DNA of 39,336 bases, taken from the IMG/VR virus record IMGVR_UViG_3300032321_000391, positions 1 through 39,336 of that record, one strand, 5' to 3'. The first letter of the stretch is position 1, and the number at the start of each line of letters is the position of its first letter. Below the pieces are notes generated by a model that was given only the letters and a program-made list of their open reading frames with translations, searched no databases and was not told where the DNA came from. This stretch comes from a virus. Lineage: Duplodnaviria; Caudoviricetes. Position numbers and translations under genes: made by a program. This document shows positions 26,028 to 39,239 of this stretch, one piece after another.

Positions 26028-26573
26028 AGGCGTAGTAAGCAGCGCGACAAGATATAGAGCGCTGCAGTATCCTTTCTAACCGAAGCCGTAGCCCCAAGGC
26101 GAAGGCGAAGGTTAGGGCATACTATAGGGAGCAACCTAGACGGTTGCCTTAGCAGTAGTGGAGGGGCGAATATAGCGTTGCCCCTCACTATACTATTAGG
26201 TGTCCGAAGGACACTAATTGGACATCTTTTTTGAATATATTTTTTGTTACCTATGCCACTGTCTATAAGTGCTGGTCAGCACCCACTTCCCCAGGATTAT
26301 CAAACTTATACGGGTAGAGACACATACACACATACGCACGCATATTTAAAACCCTGGGGTCATCAGACCCTGCAATCTCTCCTCAAGATGCACACTTTTT
26401 GCGTGCCCCGCTTTCTTGTGTCTTAAGAATTAGCAGGTGAGAGCGCTAGACCTTGCAGAGACGACAACTCTCACCCCTCCTCCTTGTATCGCGGGGGGGG
26501 CGCATCGCTTGGCTTGGCTTGGCTCGTGTGCCAATCTCACAATGTGAGACGGCTAAGGGCTTGAGCGTGTGGA

Positions 26574-26644
26574 TGTGAGATGCATCACATTTGAAAGAAA
26601 TCTGCCAAATATCCTTGACACCGCATAAACGGCGGGTGTATAAA
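26574..26644 (+). promoter_or_regulatory. Early promoter 1 with CRP-type box
   Basis: TGTGAgatgcaTCACA 26574-26589; TTGACA 26615-26620, 18 nt, TATAAA 26639-26644. Confidence 0.75.
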
Positions 26645-26686
26645 TCTCCTAACGAGTTCAAATCGGACTCAAGACAGGAGAAAAAA

Positions 26687-27349
26687 ATGTCACAAGAAAT
26701 GCACGCAGAATCTAACAAGGTGATTGCCCGCGTTATCGCCAAGCAAAACAAGGCGGAGGCACTCTCAACTCTCACCAAGGCACTAGAACAGGCTCACGAA
26801 CTCATCAAGGCAGAAACAGGCGCACCCCGTGCGACTCTCCTCGTGACTCGTGACCTCAAGGGTCGCCGAGGACATTTCACCCCTTATACCCCTTGGCGCA
26901 CCGAGGATGAGGTTTTCAACGAGATTGCTTTCAACCTTGAGACTTTCTCAAGCGCCGAGGATTTATTCTCAACACTTTTGCACGAGGTGGCGCACTCACT
27001 CAATCACATGAACGGAATTGAGGATTGCTCATCCAACCAATATCACAATGCAAAATTCAAGACACAAGCCGAGGCGTTAGGTCTTAAGACCGAAAAAACC
27101 AAAAAGGGTTACTCATCCACAAGCCTCACCGATTTTGGCGCTAAGCGATGGGCTAAGGCGCTCAAGATTGTTGCAACCGCCTATGACCTCACCGCCCTTG
27201 GCGGAGAATCTGCCAAGCCAAAAGGCAGAAACACCAACCTAATTAAAGCCGAGTGCACCGATTGCGGAAATGTAATCCGCCTAAGTCGCTCAGTGATTGA
27301 GAGCGGTGTGATGTGCATGCCATGTGAGACACAATTCACCGAGGCTTAA
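26687..27349 (+). CDS. SprT-like zinc metalloprotease with C-terminal Zn ribbon
   Basis: TLLHEVAH (HExxH), YHNAKFK, CxxC...CxxC; ATG 26687 after AGACAGGAGA RBS. Confidence 0.8.
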   Translation: MSQEMHAESNKVIARVIAKQNKAEALSTLTKALEQAHELIKAETGAPRATLLVTRDLKGRRGHFTPYTPWRTEDEVFNEIAFNLETFSSAEDLFSTLLHEVAHSLNHMNGIEDCSSNQYHNAKFKTQAEALGLKTEKTKKGYSSTSLTDFGAKRWAKALKIVATAYDLTALGGESAKPKGRNTNLIKAECTDCGNVIRLSRSVIESGVMCMPCETQFTEA

Positions 27350-27433
27350 GACACAAAAGCCCCCGCCCGATAAGTCGGCACAGGTTCACGACCTACGGGG
27401 GCACGAACTCTCAACCTAAAGTTGAGGGTTAGG

Positions 27434-27489
27434 TGTGATGGACATCACATCTAAAATGCTTGACACGCTCAGGCTATGGATGAGAAGGT
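27434..27489 (+). promoter_or_regulatory. Early promoter 2 with CRP-type box
   Basis: TGTGAtggacaTCACA 27434-27449; AAATGC-TTGACA (27460-27465), 18 nt, TGn-GAAGGT. Confidence 0.7.
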
Positions 27490-27552
27490 TACACCAAGCA
27501 AGACCACAACAGGCACCGTGCAGGTTGTGGCTTAAGACGGGAGATAAAAAAG

Positions 27553-27921
27553 ATGGCAACAAGAAGCGCAATCGGTATTAAGTCAGAAGATGGAACAATT
27601 AAGGCGAGTTACTGTCACTGGGATGGATACCCCGAAGGGGTAGGGGCTGGACTCGTTCAGTTCTACAACAGCAAGGCACAAGCCGAGGAACTAATCTCCC
27701 TTGGCGGGTTCTCAGCACTTCACGACACCCTAGAAGAAACCAAAGCGGGAGCCTATGGCACACCAAGCGACAGCGCCCGCACTTTTACAGGTGAAAAAGA
27801 TTTTTTTGAGAACTTCAACGCTGGCGAGGAGTATTTCTATCTATACACCGAGGGCACAGGATGGCGCTACTCACAAGGTGGCAACTGGGCATGTCTTAAT
27901 ACAGAAAAAGAGGTGGCATAA
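27553..27921 (+). CDS. Conserved phage early hypothetical protein
   Basis: MATRSAIG...YCHWDGYP...EYFYLY motif pattern common in phage early regions. Confidence 0.75.
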   Translation: MATRSAIGIKSEDGTIKASYCHWDGYPEGVGAGLVQFYNSKAQAEELISLGGFSALHDTLEETKAGAYGTPSDSARTFTGEKDFFENFNAGEEYFYLYTEGTGWRYSQGGNWACLNTEKEVA

Positions 27922-28086
27922 ATGGATGCACGATACGCAATGGCGGATGCATACAAGGCGCTACGCCGTGCACACATGGAGGTTGCAGAGTTTGAGGCAG
28001 AGATAAACAACTGCACAGATTCAGAGCATGCATATCGCATCGCCCTCAAGTGGCAAGCGATTGCAAATAAGAAAGTTGTGGCTTAA
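27922..28086 (+). CDS. 54-aa hypothetical protein (not in ORF track)
   Basis: MDARYAMADAYKAL...KKVVA*; GAGG RBS, abuts upstream stop. Confidence 0.65.
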   Translation: MDARYAMADAYKALRRAHMEVAEFEAEINNCTDSEHAYRIALKWQAIANKKVVA

Positions 28087-28089
28087 GAC

Positions 28090-28272
28090 ATGAACTCAAC
28101 ATGTGAGGATTGCAACAGCCCAACCCGCATCACCCTCGCCCCTTATGGGATGAGATTCATGGCAGAGATTGCATGTCCTAAATGTGGCGTGTCTTACGAC
28201 ACAAACATTGACGACACCGACATTGAAGCCATCAAGAAATCATTACTTAAGACAGAGGAGGTGACAGCATGA
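28090..28272 (+). CDS. Small zinc-ribbon protein
   Basis: CEDC...CPKC. Confidence 0.65.
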   Translation: MNSTCEDCNSPTRITLAPYGMRFMAEIACPKCGVSYDTNIDDTDIEAIKKSLLKTEEVTA

Positions 28273-28406
28273 AGATTAACTTTAACCTTTACGGGTCTAG
28301 TGGATACATCTCTAACAACACACTAGACGAGATTGAATTTGAAAGATTCCGCACCATCGCGGAGAGTTTCAAACAGGTGATTAAGATTGAGAAAGTTGAG
28401 TCTTAA
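28269..28406 (+). CDS. 45-aa hypothetical protein (not in ORF track)
   Basis: MKINFNLYGSSG...EKVES*; GGAGG RBS, ATGA overlap. Confidence 0.65.
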   Translation: MKINFNLYGSSGYISNNTLDEIEFERFRTIAESFKQVIKIEKVES

Positions 28407-28420
28407 GACAGAAGAATAAA

Positions 28421-28477
28421 TGTGATGCAAATCACAGCCCTAAATGCTTGACGAGCACGAGGTGAGCAAGGCACCAT
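28421..28477 (+). promoter_or_regulatory. Early promoter 3 with CRP-type box
   Basis: TGTGAtgcaaaTCACA 28421-28436; AAATGC-TTGACG (28448-28453), 18 nt, CACCAT. Confidence 0.7.
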
Positions 28478-28542
28478 TAGGGCACAAGATAAAGCAGGGA
28501 TAGCCCCCGCATTATCGGCACCACATACGACAGGAGAAGCAA

Positions 28543-29106
28543 GTGAAGAAAGCAGAACTGAAAGCGGGCGTTGCTTACTATGCAACCTCTCAGAATAACC
28601 ACATGAACACCTATCAAGATGCAATCTACAAGACACACAAGCAACACGAACGCAACCGTTTTTATGTAATCTTTGATACAGACGGACAGCCTAAGACTTC
28701 ATACAGAAGCGCGAGTGTGATTTACATGACCAACTGCCCGACCTATGGGCATGATTGCTTAAGACACAAGAAAGAAGATAGCAATTTAATTAACTGCTAC
28801 CGCAACGAGTTCCGACTCATGGACATCCGCGATGAATACTGGGCGGTAATCAAGCGCATGCATGAACAGCGCAAAGCACAACCAACCAAGGACATCAGAG
28901 CCGAACGCCTACGCCGTATCGCCAAGCGCAATCAAACAAAACAAGAAGAACCAATCAAGGCAGAATTCTATTCTGTCTTAAGTCAGGTTACTGGAGACTA
29001 CTGCTCATCATGGCACACACTAGGTGGGTTCAGTGTTGAGGAGATGGCAAAGATTACCAAGGCACTCAAGGCAAGCATGCCATCAGTGATGGCGGTGGCA
29101 TCGTGA
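28543..29106 (+). CDS. Hypothetical early protein
   Basis: 187 aa, GACAGGAGA RBS before GTG. Confidence 0.7.
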   Translation: MKKAELKAGVAYYATSQNNHMNTYQDAIYKTHKQHERNRFYVIFDTDGQPKTSYRSASVIYMTNCPTYGHDCLRHKKEDSNLINCYRNEFRLMDIRDEYWAVIKRMHEQRKAQPTKDIRAERLRRIAKRNQTKQEEPIKAEFYSVLSQVTGDYCSSWHTLGGFSVEEMAKITKALKASMPSVMAVAS

Positions 29107-29240
29107 CCGAGACAATCTGCGGAGACTGCCTTATCCCCCTATCCACATGCCAACATGCAAAAGATTATGTCTTAAGTAATAACGACAAAAAGATTTTGCG
29201 TTTGATTGCATCAAGCCTTGCAACGAAAGGATTGAAATGA
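29103..29240 (+). CDS. 45-aa Cys-containing peptide (not in ORF track)
   Basis: MTETICGDCLIPLSTCQH...; GTGA and ATGA overlaps at its ends. Confidence 0.55.
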   Translation: MTETICGDCLIPLSTCQHAKDYVLSNNDKKILRLIASSLATKGLK

Positions 29241-29398
29241 AACTTAACAAGCGAGGCAAGCGAGTGCGTTCTGTCTTAATACTTATCATCATAATCGGTG
29301 GCGTTTGGTTCACATCAACACACCACAAAGTCTATGGCAACTGCCACACCACAGTAGATGGCAGGGTCTGCGACCTAATCAGATGGGAGAAAAACTAA
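29237..29398 (+). CDS. 53-aa single-TM protein (not in ORF track)
   Basis: MKLNKRGKRVRSVLILIIIIGGVWF...; basic N-terminus plus TM helix, AAGGA RBS. Confidence 0.7.
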   Translation: MKLNKRGKRVRSVLILIIIIGGVWFTSTHHKVYGNCHTTVDGRVCDLIRWEKN

Positions 29399-29637
29399 TG
29401 AGCAGACAACATCACTATGCGATTATGTTTGACGAAGAAACAAATCGTTGGAGCATAGACATAGACACAGAAGAAAAAGTTTTTTACGAAGGCTCTATCT
29501 ACAACACAGCAACTCGCAAGTGGGAGTATGGGTATGCAGGTGACGGCAACTTCATCGGCAGAGAACAAGAACTTACCGAAGCGATAAGCAAATTCCTAGA
29601 TAAACAAAATGAATTGTTACTTAAGACAGAGATGTGA
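29398..29637 (+). CDS. Hypothetical early protein
   Basis: ATG 29398 (TAATG coupling, GGAG RBS). Confidence 0.65.
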   Translation: MSRQHHYAIMFDEETNRWSIDIDTEEKVFYEGSIYNTATRKWEYGYAGDGNFIGREQELTEAISKFLDKQNELLLKTEM

Positions 29638-29688
29638 CCAACATCACACCACAAATGCTTGACTTACTATGCCAACGAGTGGCAAAGT
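29633..29688 (+). promoter_or_regulatory. Early promoter 4 with CRP-type box
   Basis: TGTGAccaacaTCACA 29633-29648; AAATGC-TTGACT (29659-29664), 18 nt, TGn-CAAAGT. Confidence 0.7.
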
Positions 29689-29717
29689 AATCACTACCAA
29701 CTAGACAGGAGAACAAG

Positions 29718-30086
29718 ATGAGCAATACAACAGGGCACACAGATGCCAACGGACAGGGCACCATCGTTATACCCGTGGAGTTAGACCGCAAGGAACTATG
29801 GGGTGCGGTGATGGGTTCAGCCTTTGAATCTTTCGGTGACCACTGGCAAGAGATTGAATACCTAAGCGGTAATTGGGATGACCCAACCAGCAAGGTGCGG
29901 ATGGTATGTCACAATGATAAGTACGAAAATGTAGAAAAGATAATCACGATTGACGACATAGCCTTGGCACTACCTATCGCAAACAAGAAAGTTTACATGG
30001 ACTTGTTTGACTTTGACCAATACGATGCAATCTGCGGTGATGCTGTCTTACAGGTGGCTGTCATTGGCGATGTGATATTCGGTTAG
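29718..30086 (+). CDS. Hypothetical acidic early protein
   Basis: 122 aa, AGACAGGAGA RBS; ends DAICGDAVLQVAVIGDVIFG. Confidence 0.7.
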   Translation: MSNTTGHTDANGQGTIVIPVELDRKELWGAVMGSAFESFGDHWQEIEYLSGNWDDPTSKVRMVCHNDKYENVEKIITIDDIALALPIANKKVYMDLFDFDQYDAICGDAVLQVAVIGDVIFG

Positions 30087-30096
30087 GACTTAAGAC

Positions 30097-30243
30097 ATGA
30101 ACTCACTAGAGATGAAAGCCACACGCACCCTTGCTAAGCGAGCAAGAGAGCAACGAAACGCCAGCACAAATGACAAAGACTTTGATTACTGGCATGCGAT
30201 AATGGAACAGTACGAAAACAAACTACAGACAGGAGATAAGTAA
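30097..30243 (+). CDS. 48-aa hypothetical protein (not in ORF track)
   Basis: MNSLEMKATRTLAKRAREQR...; fills the gap between two genes. Confidence 0.6.
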   Translation: MNSLEMKATRTLAKRAREQRNASTNDKDFDYWHAIMEQYENKLQTGDK

Positions 30244-30244
30244 C

Positions 30245-30526
30245 ATGGCAATACATGAAGTAGAACTAAAAGGAATACAGGTCGGAGCATTACTTAAGAC
30301 AGAAACTGCATACGACAAAGACATGAACCTCACCTTTGATGGCAAAGAGATACGAGTTATCCTGCATTGGGATGACCACGATGGCTTTGATATTCAATGG
30401 CTTGACCTTGAAGGTAGATGGATTCAACAGCCAGCATGGGCAGATAGGATTGAGGAAGAAGGCACCATGAGTGTTGGGTATTACCTTGATTCATTGGAGG
30501 CACACACCAAGAAGGAGATGCCATGA
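30245..30526 (+). CDS. Hypothetical acidic early protein
   Basis: 93 aa, AGACAGGAGA RBS. Confidence 0.7.
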   Translation: MAIHEVELKGIQVGALLKTETAYDKDMNLTFDGKEIRVILHWDDHDGFDIQWLDLEGRWIQQPAWADRIEEEGTMSVGYYLDSLEAHTKKEMP

Positions 30527-30699
30527 CTATCCTCATGCAATGCTTAGGTTGTGGCACAGTAGTGACCAACCCCAAGGTAATGAACTACATGTATGAGAAG
30601 TGCGATTACTGCACAGATAAGCAGAAAGAGATGGAAGAAAAAGCAATAGATAGTTTCTTGCATGCCGAAGCCGAGAGAAAGTTGGACAGTAATGCGTAA
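30523..30699 (+). CDS. 58-aa zinc-finger peptide (not in ORF track)
   Basis: MTILMQCLGCG...CDYC...; AAGGAG RBS, ATGA overlap. Confidence 0.65.
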   Translation: MTILMQCLGCGTVVTNPKVMNYMYEKCDYCTDKQKEMEEKAIDSFLHAEAERKLDSNA

Positions 30700-31132
30700 T
30701 GACTTAAGACAGATACACCCACATGCCCGACTGTGGATAGCAACAGTAATTATCTTAGGACTAATCTTAGTTCTTAAGCCAGCATCAAAGTTCATGGCAC
30801 CACCACATGGCAAGGTGATTGCTTACTATCAGAACGATTACCAACGCTATGCCTTAGACAAACTGATAGAGCGCAACCAACTAGAACAATACCCCTGCCT
30901 CTATGAATTGTGGATTAAGGAATCCAACTGGCGACCGCAAGCACTAAACAAATCAAGCAAGGCATCAGGTATCGCACAACTAAAGCCAAGCACATGGCGC
31001 AACATCAACACCATCCCCACGCAAGACGGTTACAAGCAGGTAGATGCTGGACTCAAGTACATAGATAGACACTATGGCAAGAACAGTATCTGCAAGGCAT
31101 ACGCTCACCATCTTGCGATGGGGTGGTACTGA
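30692..31132 (+). CDS. Membrane-anchored lytic transglycosylase (SLT-like)
   Basis: TM helix then CLYELWIKESNW (catalytic Glu), ASGIAQ, GLKYIDRHYG, GWY. Confidence 0.8.
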   Translation: MRNDLRQIHPHARLWIATVIILGLILVLKPASKFMAPPHGKVIAYYQNDYQRYALDKLIERNQLEQYPCLYELWIKESNWRPQALNKSSKASGIAQLKPSTWRNINTIPTQDGYKQVDAGLKYIDRHYGKNSICKAYAHHLAMGWY

Positions 31133-31476
31133 TGTTTAAGATTAAATTCTTTCGTGTATTAAGTCAGACTAACCCACGCTATAAAGGTTCAGATACTGTC
31201 AGTTATCAGTTGAAGTATGACCCTGAGAAGTGGAAGGGTGCATCGTGTGCTGGTATAGATACGGAGTTCTTCTATCCACAACAGGATAAGTTTGAGGCAG
31301 GTGAGGCTGAGTTACTCAAGCGTATCTGTGTGGACTGCCCCGTTATGGAGGCGTGCCTTGAGTGGGGCATAGCCATGGAAAGGTATGGAGTATGGGGTGC
31401 AACGACACCCTTTGAACGGTTTGCTATCCGTAAGCGACACAACATCATGGTCAATGAGCCTAAGCAAAACCCGTGA
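31132..31476 (+). CDS. whiB: WhiB-family transcription factor
   Basis: C...FFYP...CVDCPVMEAC...GVWG: four-Cys Fe-S signature with GVWG turn. Confidence 0.9.
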   Translation: MFKIKFFRVLSQTNPRYKGSDTVSYQLKYDPEKWKGASCAGIDTEFFYPQQDKFEAGEAELLKRICVDCPVMEACLEWGIAMERYGVWGATTPFERFAIRKRHNIMVNEPKQNP

Positions 31477-31488
31477 TATAGTTCCAAG

Positions 31489-31577
31489 GTTCACCAGCCC
31501 CTACGAAGGGGAAGCGTGGAGGTTGGTGAACATAGAAAAGCCCATCAGATTCTCTCCTGTCTCTGGTGGGTTTCTCT
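31489..31577 (+). ncRNA. Candidate small RNA: two hairpins, the second a terminator with an anti-RBS loop
   Basis: TGaTATAGT at 31474-31482; stems 31489-31499/31521-31531 and 31539-31549/31562-31572 use G-U pairs only on the + strand; loop TTCTCTCCTGTC. Confidence 0.6.
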
Positions 31578-32115
31578 ATGTATTAAGACCCAACTCTTTA
31601 GCCAACATAAATACTTCATCACTTAAATCTTCTAATGTTCCATCGTTATAGATAACATGACTAAACATATAGTTATCCATTGCATGTTCAGATGGATGAT
31701 GATTAACTGCGGTGTTATTCCTGCGGTTGATACGCCACACAGTACCGCCTAACTTCTTGATTGCATCAGCCTCATTAGGAAAGCGCACATCACTGATAAC
31801 AACACGGTCATCCTGTCTTAAGTCAGACAGTGACATTTTAATCCACACATCATCGCCTAACATCTTGCGCCCAAAGTCAGTGCCCAGTACCTGTAATAGA
31901 CGGCGAACTTCTGGATTCTTCTTAGCAATATCCCAGCCATAGTCATCTACATAATCGGAGACACGAGTGATGCTATCTAATCGTGGGTTAATAATCTGTA
32001 ACGCATGGCGCATCGGGTCAGCAAATGCTCGCCGTTTGTAATCGTAATTAAGACACAACAATTCTGCCGTTGCATCTTTGCCTGACTGTGCGTATCCACT
32101 CAATCCGATTATCAT
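31576..32115 (-). CDS. Deoxynucleoside monophosphate kinase
   Basis: IIGLSGYAQSGKD P-loop, FADP, RRLLQVLGT, VISDVRFPNE, HPSE. Confidence 0.88.
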   Translation of the reverse strand: MIIGLSGYAQSGKDATAELLCLNYDYKRRAFADPMRHALQIINPRLDSITRVSDYVDDYGWDIAKKNPEVRRLLQVLGTDFGRKMLGDDVWIKMSLSDLRQDDRVVISDVRFPNEADAIKKLGGTVWRINRRNNTAVNHHPSEHAMDNYMFSHVIYNDGTLEDLSDEVFMLAKELGLNT

Positions 32116-34332: not shown

Positions 34333-35056
34333 TAGCCTTCTCCTGTTGTGCTCGTTGAGATGCTTCTGCTGCTGACCAATACAATGAGTAATAAGATTCA
34401 TCATAAGCAAAGCGCTTCATGTGTTTAACTCGTGCACCTGTGTGTGCATGCACCTTGACACCTGCTGCTTTTAGTTTACGGAAGAACACAATGTCCTCAC
34501 CAATAAACTTTTCACCAAGGTTCTCAACCTCAGCAAACATTGACTGGTCTGGAAACTTCTGTCTTAAGTGAGGAACTACACTGCGATGCATGAGCGTAAG
34601 CCCAAGCCCTGCATTATCTACCTCAATGATTTCATTGGCTGGTAGTGGATGGATGTAACGGATATTAAACTCATTACCTGTCTCATTAAATAGCGCAGGC
34701 ATAGGTTGCATCAGTGATGACTCCATCTGCTTAGAGATAAAGTAAACACCCGATACCACTGGTCGCGTTGCTTTGTCTGCTGTTTTCCATAGCATCTCAA
34801 GCACATCAAGGGTAAGCACAATGTCTGAGTCAACCCATAACAACCAATCAGTCTTTACATTGTCATACCACATATCAAGTAGCGCTTGTCGCTGTCTGCC
34901 AATCTGATTACCTTGTACTCGGATGGCATTATGCACACCCAACTTACGGGTAGGTGCTGTGATGGTGGTGTACATCAAACCTTCTGCAAACTTGCCATCC
35001 ACCATACCGTTATCGCACCAACCGATAGATAAAGTTTCATTAGAACTGTGTGCCAT
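34310..35056 (-). CDS. GT-A fold glycosyltransferase-like protein
   Basis: WLLWVDSD (DxD), AGLGLTLMHR, GEDIVFF, VKHMK. Confidence 0.75.
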   Translation of the reverse strand: MAHSSNETLSIGWCDNGMVDGKFAEGLMYTTITAPTRKLGVHNAIRVQGNQIGRQRQALLDMWYDNVKTDWLLWVDSDIVLTLDVLEMLWKTADKATRPVVSGVYFISKQMESSLMQPMPALFNETGNEFNIRYIHPLPANEIIEVDNAGLGLTLMHRSVVPHLRQKFPDQSMFAEVENLGEKFIGEDIVFFRKLKAAGVKVHAHTGARVKHMKRFAYDESYYSLYWSAAEASQRAQQEKANDDTTKE

Positions 35057-37808: not shown

Positions 37809-38057
37809 ATGTATACACTGCTGTTCGTGTTGAACAGATTAAGTAGAGGACTAGCGAGGTTCCTGAACCGAGCAGGTGTTACCGCACCCATAGGTGCAGA
37901 TTTGCGTAGCCTTGGTCCTGTCCATGCATGTATGTGTGGCTCACTGCTTTTTAAGGTGGGTTGCATGTTTGAAGATGGCGATATAAGTATGTGGTTTGTT
38001 GATGCAGAGTGTGCTCTATGTGGAGCCTTAGTGAAAGTGCCAACACCAGTTGATTAA
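37809..38057 (+). CDS. Small zinc-binding protein
   Basis: DLRSLGPVHACMCG...CALCG...PTPVD. Confidence 0.65.
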   Translation: MYTLLFVLNRLSRGLARFLNRAGVTAPIGADLRSLGPVHACMCGSLLFKVGCMFEDGDISMWFVDAECALCGALVKVPTPVD

Positions 38058-38196
38058 AATAATTTATGCATTAAGTTTTATTGTGAGTAACATCACAACT
38101 TTTTTTTGGTCTTATCAGTTAGGTATTAAGACAGAGCAACGAGCACGCCTTCGGAGGCTAAACACATTGAAGCGATTACTTAATGGCAAAGTATGA
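38050..38196 (+). CDS. 48-aa putative membrane peptide (not in ORF track)
   Basis: TTG start, MIKIIYALSFIVSNITTFFWSYQLGIKTEQRARLRR...; overlaps both neighbours. Confidence 0.45.
   Translation: MIKIIYALSFIVSNITTFFWSYQLGIKTEQRARLRRLNTLKRLLNGKV
38082..38097. promoter_or_regulatory. Fifth perfect CRP-type box
   Basis: TGTGAgtaacaTCACA; no TTGAC follows; may lie inside a small ORF. Confidence 0.5.
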
Positions 38197-38350
38197 TTTT
38201 AAATGCAATGTATGCGGTGGGGTACAAGAGATAGATAAACCAATGGGTAGCGACTGGGTACCAGTGTGCTGCAATGAATCCATGTCTCAAGTTTATAGTC
38301 CAATACCAGTCAAGTTCAATGCTTCTGGTTTCTATTCAACAGGTGGTTAA
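38183..38350 (+). CDS. FmdB-family zinc-ribbon protein (not in ORF track)
   Basis: MAKYDFKCNVCG...CC...FNASGFYSTGG. Confidence 0.8.
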   Translation: MAKYDFKCNVCGGVQEIDKPMGSDWVPVCCNESMSQVYSPIPVKFNASGFYSTGG

Positions 38351-38929
38351 ATGGAATATCCAAATTGGTTTGAAAGCACAGGCGCTATCAATAACTTTGA
38401 GCGCCACCTTCGCCAGCATGCAGGCAAGCCTGTTGATTTCCTACAGATAGGTGCATACACAGGCGATGCATCTGAGTGGATGTTGAGAGAAATCTTGAGC
38501 CACCCCGACTCAACTTTGACCGATGTGGATACATGGGAAGGCAGTGATGAGGCATCTCACCATGATATGGACTTTGATGATGTCTTTAAAACATACGAAA
38601 AGAAGGTTGGCAAGTACCATAACTTGACCTATTGCCAGCAAACAAGCAATGAGTTCTTTCTTAATAACAAAAAGTTATATGACTTTATCTACATAGATGG
38701 TGACCACACAGCCTTTGGCGTGATGCGTGATGTGATGAACGCCTATGGTGCACTTAAAGCAGGTGGAATTATTGCTTGCGATGACTACCAATGGTCAGAA
38801 GGTAAGGGTAATTACTATGACCCACGCCCTGCGATTGATGCTTTCTTTAACATAACCCGTGACAGATTTACTGTCATTGAAATCGGTTGGCAAGTCTGGT
38901 TTAAACATGCAGCACAGGCTACTACTTAA
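38351..38929 (+). CDS. Class I SAM-dependent methyltransferase (Methyltransf_24-like)
   Basis: LQIGAYTG, VDTW, DFIYIDGDH, LKAGGIIACDDY. Confidence 0.85.
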   Translation: MEYPNWFESTGAINNFERHLRQHAGKPVDFLQIGAYTGDASEWMLREILSHPDSTLTDVDTWEGSDEASHHDMDFDDVFKTYEKKVGKYHNLTYCQQTSNEFFLNNKKLYDFIYIDGDHTAFGVMRDVMNAYGALKAGGIIACDDYQWSEGKGNYYDPRPAIDAFFNITRDRFTVIEIGWQVWFKHAAQATT

Positions 38930-39239
38930 GAACCCAACCACTCGCTTTGGTATCTGCGCCGTGTGTGGACCAACGAGGTTGAAAAAGAAACAACGGGGTT
39001 ACTATTCCTGTCGCACAAAGTCTAATCAAAACCGTGTCAAGTTACTTAAACATAAGAAAGAACAATGCGAAGTGTGTGGCTTTGTGGCTGTGCACCGTAG
39101 TCAGTTAGACATTGACCACATAGATGGCGACCATAGTAACAATTCGTTATCAAACTTACAGACCCTATGTGCCAACTGCCACCGTCTTAAGACACAAGAT
39201 AATAAAGATTGGCAAAACAAAAAAGCCCCCCGCAATTAA
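38907..39239 (+). CDS. HNH endonuclease
   Basis: CEVCG...LDIDHIDGDHSNNSLSNLQTLCANCHRLKT. Confidence 0.88.
   Translation: MQHRLLLKNPTTRFGICAVCGPTRLKKKQRGYYSCRTKSNQNRVKLLKHKKEQCEVCGFVAVHRSQLDIDHIDGDHSNNSLSNLQTLCANCHRLKTQDNKDWQNKKAPRN

Follow-up and report, generated by a model that had tools for sequence, protein, structure and literature searches.

A predicted phage RNA whose hairpin loop complements a tag on early-gene ribosome-binding sites

Comparative sequence analysis makes it probable that this freshwater actinophage encodes a trans-acting RNA that blocks the translation of its early genes through barcoded ribosome-binding sites (RBSs). The predicted RNA is about 90 nt long and is likely transcribed from a promoter of its own, which overlaps the end of the whiB gene. 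In one of the RNA's hairpins, the loop would display a sequence complementary to the tag on the phage's early-gene RBSs. The loop likely pairs with the tagged sites in trans and would thereby block translation in the cell. The loop and the tag vary in step from lineage to lineage, which makes it likely that a single RNA silences a whole set of early genes.

The DNA that we analyzed ("the window") is the whole stretch of 39,336 nt, a virus record of 39.3 kb with 97% completeness. Its gene products include terminase, portal, primase, helicase, a sigma-like protein, a dNMP kinase, and WhiB. The host is likely 'Ca. Nanopelagicales', because one relative of the kinase is named from the freshwater phage uvFW-CGR-AMD-COM-C440 and about 30 of the window's open reading frames have counterparts in the cultured Planktophila phages E7 and F5 (the terminase is 46% identical and the capsid 68%). 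A search of genome contigs found no relative of the window's sigma gene, and no DNA match to the window was found among cultured phage records. Short + strand genes at 26.6-31.5 kb converge on - strand replication genes at the candidate RNA (Table 1). We call the + strand block "early" on the basis of its layout, its TTGAC promoters, and its gene content.

Table 1. Coordinates in the window of the candidate RNA, the tags, and the flanking genes
Feature	Position	Strand	Basis or remark
Tag AGACAGGAGA before SprT-like gene 26687-27349, first early unit	26672..26681	+	
Tag AGACGGGAGA, one G-U, before gene 27553-27921	27535..27544	+	
Tag GACAGGAGA before gene 28543-29106	28529..28537	+	
Tag AGACAGGAGA before gene 29718-30086	29703..29712	+	
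Tag AGACAGGAGA before internal gene 30245-30526	30227..30236	+	
whiB-like gene, last of early strand	31132..31476	+	PHROGs and Pfam
Extended -10 promoter-like element TGA-TATAGT, TGATATAGT	31474..31482	+	sequence, conservation; activity inferred
Predicted small RNA, about 90 nt	31489..31581	+	fold, covariation; ends predicted from promoter and U-rich tail
Hairpin 1, optional; loop AAGGGGAAG at 31506-31514	31489..31531	+	alignment, covariation
Hairpin 2, terminator-like long stem presenting seed loop	31530..31581, core 31539-31572	+	z -7.4, covariation
Seed CUCUCCUGUC	31552..31561	+	invariant in 33/33 A-type hairpins; 9 nt pair with tag
dNMP kinase gene, convergent; stop overlaps outer stem of hairpin 2	31576..32115	-	
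Partial tag ACAGGAGA before RusA-like gene (start 34332; PHROGs)	34339..34346	-	8-bp match, -13.2 kcal/mol

All of the coordinates that the initial annotation gave for the elements of the candidate RNA and for the tags hold in the sequence. The predicted folding energy of a 101-nt region is -49.1 kcal/mol (z -6.4; 0/200 shuffles were as good), compared with -37.9 kcal/mol for its - strand. The proposed two-hairpin design is present in the window, but the first hairpin is dispensable: it is missing in many relatives, whose predicted RNA is about 45-55 nt. In hairpin 2, the arms 31539-31549 and 31562-31572 enclose the loop TTCTCTCCTGTC (31550-31561), which is the unusually large 12-nt loop that had been described. 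This hairpin does resemble a terminator, but its stem runs further out than had been noted (ACATAG/CTATGT, 31530-31581), through the U-rich tail. Of the features of an intrinsic terminator, the stem and the U-rich tail are present; the loop has 12 nt, and the stem through the tail covaries (pair 80-127). The seed is mostly unpaired, with an opening cost of 2.2 kcal/mol. None of the covariance models for 4227 Rfam families, C4 included, matched near 31474-31581 at E<=1. We also considered a conserved small ORF over the element, which is unlikely because the lengths of the elements vary out of frame.

Upstream, an extended -10 element had been said to overlap the end of whiB, and the TGA of TGATATAGT is indeed the whiB stop codon. 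Among the relatives described below, 131 distinct promoter regions have a TAnnnT hexamer whose distance to the first stem is fixed; a script picked the best hexamer, and it is the fixed distance that is the evidence. Eighty-seven of these regions have the TG, 32 match TTGACA at 5/6 positions or more, and 26 have neither; several regions that lack the TG extension have a perfect TTGACA. The hexamer lies 25-36 nt from the seed where there is no hairpin 1 and 57-82 nt from it where there is a 5' hairpin. A scan with consensus promoters found fewer sites than in shuffled sequence and did not list the one at the whiB stop, so the case for the promoter rests on conservation. To judge by its sequence, the promoter looks like a sigma-A promoter of the host. 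As in base-pairing small RNAs, sequence and conservation thus point to an intergenic unit with its own promoter and a terminator-like 3' end.

The match between loop and RBSs had been presented as an exact reverse complement. The 10-nt tag AGACAGGAGA does occur exactly at 26672, 29703, and 30227 and reversed at 31553-31562, but only nine of the ten complementary nucleotides are in the loop; the tenth (31562) is the first base of the stem. The near-exact tags were also found, as AGACAGGAGA with one mismatch at 27535 and 28528. With up to one mismatch, AGACAGGAGA has 10 matches in the window versus 2.2 expected (0/100 shuffles). Among 48 start regions hand-chosen across the window, the five that form the strongest duplexes with the loop (-14.7 to -15.7 kcal/mol, 9 bp) are those of the five tagged early genes. 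The start of the RusA-like gene ranks 6/48, which makes it a possible, weaker sixth target. The tag is not confined to the lead genes of transcripts, as had been thought: the copy at 30227 precedes an internal gene, and A-type relatives have 3-13 tags, many of them internal.

To compare the loop with RBSs more widely, we scanned viral and metagenome contigs and obtained 475 sequences, including the window. In 336 of these, a kinase or sigma gene converges on whiB, and 166 are distinct at this junction. A seed motif can be recognized in all 166 distinct loci, at most about 100 nt from the stop codon of whiB, although these loci are related and so the counts are not independent events. We classified their loops into 57 of type A (CTCCTGTC), 89 of type B (CCAGTC), 15 with two seeds (type BD, CCTTTCGTC plus CCAGTC), and 5 others. 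The A and B seeds differ by one complementary change at the center of the seed. Seeds were at least 70% unpaired in 33/34 distinct A hairpins and in 33/36 distinct B hairpins. The two-seed RNAs, which lie after whiB (L078, L344, L370, L440, and L450), form three-way junctions that carry two small loops, each matching one tag type; the D seed is partly paired in 10/12 predicted folds. The rarer loops include a C type (CTCCTTTC twice, close to a mimic of the 16S tail; L074 and L428, 2 loci) and an E type (CTAGTCC; L171 and L276, 2 loci). Phages with these loops are predicted from sequence to carry the tags GAAAGGAG (C type) and GGACTAG (E type). More distant phages that share just the kinase had no such element near the kinase. 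A scan for the hairpin-1 pattern also gave many matches in unrelated contigs, which we put down to chance.

Early regions of at least 3.5 kb were available for 104 of the 166 loci, and we scored loops against tags in these; the C-type, E-type, and D-only loci have early regions of just 3-2644 nt and were left out. A comparison of the loop with early RBSs in related phages had been suggested as a check, and the two covary across three types. All 40 loci with loop A have 3-13 GAC(A/G)GGAG tags at the start position, and any B tag was found in just 3 of them. All 58 loci with loop B have GACTGG(A/G), with two or more copies in 55, and any A tag was found in 5. The D tag, GACG(A/G)AAGG, is at starts in 6/6 two-seed loci and in 0/98 A and B loci, and all six two-seed loci also retain a B tag. 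The change can be seen within orthologous genes, named here by the N-termini of their products: the MARH gene has a D tag in L440, which has two seeds, and a B tag in L374 and L427, which have one; the MARQ gene has a D tag in L344 and a B tag in L438; and the MYLG gene has a D tag in L344 and a B tag in L342. The MCGI gene has a B tag throughout, which is still matched by the retained seed.

Predicted pairing gave the same picture. A loops form strong duplexes at 154/353 early starts versus 3/233 starts on the replication strand, and when the same 353 early starts were paired with the wrong type of loop, there were 2 strong duplexes. The selectivity of B loops is weaker (68/493 early starts versus 16/412 replication starts). 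The motifs are also placed like RBSs: 264/269 copies of the A motif are at start positions, mostly with a spacing of 5-9 nt, and B tags occur in two registers, 0-8 nt and mostly 5-10 nt before the start. On a tree of the kinase and the sigma protein, the loop and tag labels agree on 59/61 tips (11 unscorable tips were dropped), and on a tree of the transglycosylase and WhiB they agree on 80/82 (10 dropped). The trees imply 8-9 changes each, and the two exceptions are truncated contigs.

Many of the changes on the trees are probably due to recombination, and types A and B may go back to a single ancient divergence of entire early modules, whose palindromic repeats differ as well. L244 had appeared to be an independent origin of type A, but both its early region and its element match A loci best, so we rejected it. 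There are few independent origins and three solid independent observations: A versus B, B versus BD, and the relocated copy in E7 and F5 (see below). Within a type, no covariation was detected at the flanks of the loop (p 0.16 for A and 0.26 for B), and wobble-type variants of the tag are explained equally well by pairing with 16S rRNA. On the evidence of sequence comparison, the element is real and conserved, and its complementarity to the tags is selected.

The early modules contain other repeats. A TTAAGAC repeat overlaps 145/259 A tags, and from its sequence it could itself fix part of the A tag. CTTAAG is dense in the early module (16 of the window's 36 copies are in 26400-31900; the A-type median is 15 per 5.3 kb), and the palindrome GTTTAAAC has a median of 19-22 copies in B and BD early regions but is absent in L044 and L047. 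Perfect TGTGA-N6-TCACA boxes, which we take to be CRP-type, lie upstream of four early TTGAC promoters (at 26574, 27434, 28421, and 29633); a fifth, at 38082, is inside a small + strand island (37809-39239, with methyltransferase-like and HNH genes) that breaks up the - strand genes. Such boxes occur in the early regions of 31/32 A-type, 10/53 B-type, and 0/6 BD loci, and in E7 and F5 too. Judging from their sequences, the palindromic repeats are likely a separate DNA-binding or decoy system.

We then asked which strand carries the selected element. Across 58 distinct elements with both hairpins, 98.2% of cells are paired, versus 31-56% in slid controls; the test used the structure from the window's fold, which favors that structure. 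Both sides change in 18/25 pairs (11/12 in hairpin 1 and 7/13 in hairpin 2). The initial annotation had assigned the element to the + strand from its G-U pairs, and the relatives bear this out: G-U pairs outnumber A-C pairs 120 to 13, so + is the selected strand. The energy of the whole hairpin favors + in just 51/87 hairpins. The kinase match is more than 200 nt from whiB in 43/164 loci, and there the seed still adjoins whiB; in L033 and L035, a separate tetraloop terminator adjoins the kinase. Because the seed stays by whiB and a separate terminator can lie next to the kinase, the unit belongs with the + strand promoter and not with the end of the kinase transcript. In L033 and L035, the region between whiB and the kinase also holds an inserted + strand gene, which has its own tagged RBS and tetraloop terminator and lies 3' of the RNA.

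These results bear on whether the tag and the hairpin might instead be a protein-binding motif, either as a DNA site or as a - strand decoy loop (AGACAGGAGAGAA) that titrates a repressor of early RBSs. A protein site would give covariation as well, A tags often overlap a palindromic repeat, and the hairpin also folds on the - strand (z -5.1), at a convergent junction. However, the excess of G-U pairs and the promoter are on the + side, the hairpin stays with whiB where genes and a second terminator lie between it and the kinase, and in the two-seed clade the specificity of one protein would need to have shifted or doubled. We consider this reading very unlikely.

The cultured Planktophila phages LanE43AprE7 and F5 (OX376640/1) belong to the same phage family as the window. 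A model built from 33 A-type hairpins has a single match in each genome (E 0.004 and 0.04, which are rough values), and this hairpin is not mentioned in the available sections of PMC10202952. Its long stem has the loop UAC(U/C)CUCCUGUC and the same outer stem as in the window (ACAUAG/CUAUGU). The tag is also the same, and it precedes six early-strand starts in F5 and seven in E7, plus two replication-strand starts in each, of the exonuclease gene and one more gene. The hairpin's site differs: it is on the replication strand, 3' of an AT-rich promoter-like region and just 5' of the tagged exonuclease gene. Thus, E7 and F5 retain this loop and this tag even though the hairpin is located elsewhere in the genome.

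The hairpin in E7 and F5 lacks a U-tract, which is hard to reconcile with an ordinary bidirectional terminator whose loop matches the tag by chance or descent. The window's hairpin does have the convergent position of such a terminator, with U-rich tails on both strands. However, the 8-mer would arise by chance in a 12-nt loop with a probability of about 7e-5, and the hairpin 2 loop holds the sole + strand copy of CTCCTGTC in the window. Also, conservation is higher in the loop than in the stem, and there are three matched states of loop and tag. Covariation largely refutes this explanation, and we give it hardly any credence.

If the RNA does pair with the tags, would it repress or activate? 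In established small-RNA systems, a duplex over an RBS blocks the loading of 30S subunits. We infer repression because the GGAG or AAGGA that the 30S subunit needs to recognize would lie within the duplex. The 16S tail is GGATCACCTCCTTTCT in three genomes from the family of a Nanopelagicus MAG, and the A tag is the complement of this tail with one change, from A to C. Because just one base differs, the A tag still serves as a Shine-Dalgarno sequence yet is distinctive. By differing in one base from the 16S-complementary AGAAAGGAG, the tag would let the RNA tell early phage messages from late phage messages or host messages. Genomes of the host group contain few copies of the tag (0-6 each): GACAGGAG-N5-10-ATG occurs 0, 6, 4, 1, and 4 times in five of them, compared to 0-3 times for the reversed control. 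In each register, the B tags keep a Shine-Dalgarno sequence at a normal distance that the duplex would cover.

Alternatively, the RNA might pair with the tags and activate or stabilize the messages, as an adaptor or by blocking a nuclease. The loop of hairpin 1, AAGGGGAAG, is nearly invariant across types A, B, and E where it is present, is Shine-Dalgarno-like, and resembles the complement of the host group's 16S tail CACCTCCTTTCT, as an adaptor might; its own complement was sought at the start regions in the window and was not found. However, hairpin 1 is absent from many lineages, the tags keep a usable Shine-Dalgarno sequence that the duplex would cover, and B tags are in two registers whereas an adaptor needs a single spacing. 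Activation therefore seems quite unlikely to us.

Under the repression that we favor, a stable RNA would accumulate and damp the first wave of gene expression, as delayed negative feedback. The sigma-A-like promoter suggests early synthesis and build-up, and therefore delayed feedback rather than a switch driven by a late promoter. The early-to-late switch that had been proposed is a hypothesis, and in E7 and F5 the tag also precedes replication-strand genes. The exclusion of superinfecting phages would be a compatible second use of the RNA. It is unlikely, though worth considering, that exclusion by the same RNA and pairing is instead the main purpose: RNA made by a resident phage would silence the early genes of a later arrival that shares its tag, and tags would diverge to escape. 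Tags do differ between lineages that exchange genes, and a pure timer need not diversify; also, c4 RNA underlies the heteroimmunity of phages P1 and P7 (PMC12197685). However, both seeds of the two-seed RNAs match the phage's own genes, and the A tag is shared with the distant E7 and F5 (46% identity in terminase), which is slow for an arms race. Neither exclusion nor repression of the phage's own genes excludes the other.

Among known systems, c4 RNA is the closest in mechanism and the start-associated sequence (SAS) of cluster K mycobacteriophages is the closest in anatomy. As described in PMC12197685, loop complements in c4 pair around the RBS of the phage's own mRNA and block its translation, and c4 is tied to immunity type. 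The candidate RNA is like c4 in having a loop-borne seed that is complementary to RBSs in its own phage's mRNA. However, c4 acts on one antirepressor operon of a temperate phage, while the candidate RNA would act on 5-13 genes in several transcripts through a shared tag. Its candidate targets are SprT-like and other early genes of unknown function, not an antirepressor operon, and scans of 32 and 26 of the window's ORFs found no match to an integrase, repressor, or antirepressor.

In cluster K mycobacteriophages and in Microbacterium phages of cluster EF (PMC3203893, PMC7302621, PMC11373665), SAS is an over-conserved RBS motif of non-structural genes, with one reverse copy that is not associated with a gene start. 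Pope 2011 reported one reverse copy in four genomes and left its function open; Freeman 2024 still called the function of SAS unknown and placed the start of late transcription in Adephagia between genes 92 and 93. The available sections of these three papers do not connect the reverse copy with any antisense RNA. In Adephagia, we found the reverse copy (L484:2183-2195) in the gap between genes 92 and 93, in a 10-nt hairpin loop (z -6.5 for the region). In Anaya, the reverse copy (L475:47871-47883) is also in a hairpin loop (z -2.9 for the 54-nt hairpin); a longer fold was not significant (z -0.7). Like our tag, which differs from the 16S complement at the C, SAS is an asymmetric motif before non-structural starts that extends beyond 16S pairing, with a single reverse copy (for our tag, in the window). 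However, the cluster K consensus GGGATAGGAGCCC is unrelated to AGACAGGAGA, as are the phages, and the A-type hairpin model has no match in Anaya. The likeness is one of analogy, not homology.

In bacteria, trans-acting RNAs such as RsaE and RNAIII of Staphylococcus use C/U-rich loop seeds to occlude the Shine-Dalgarno sequences of several mRNAs. These are host regulators with scattered targets, whereas the candidate RNA would act on the phage's own genes through a co-evolved tag. In a search of mainly open literature and of Rfam, we found no published description of a phage RNA directed against a shared early-RBS tag, and six supplement files of Fremin 2023 contained no match.

We see about an even chance that actinophages use a general tag-and-antitag code, in which a private RBS barcode allows a class of genes to be silenced by one hairpin RNA. 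The shut-off of early phage genes is usually credited to proteins and promoters, and to our knowledge, the host phylum generally lacks Hfq. If the code exists, it would be both an RNA-only developmental timer and an identity system, and it would explain the SAS of cluster K. It would offer a testable answer to the role of SAS, a question that was open in 2011 and still so in 2024; two cultured members of the family carry the system, and RNA-seq data for Adephagia are public as GSE271014. The pairing of RNA and tag also suggests a compact, re-codable tool for switching sets of genes. If the mechanism is as we propose, it would be a new layer of control in the phages of one of the most abundant groups of freshwater bacteria.
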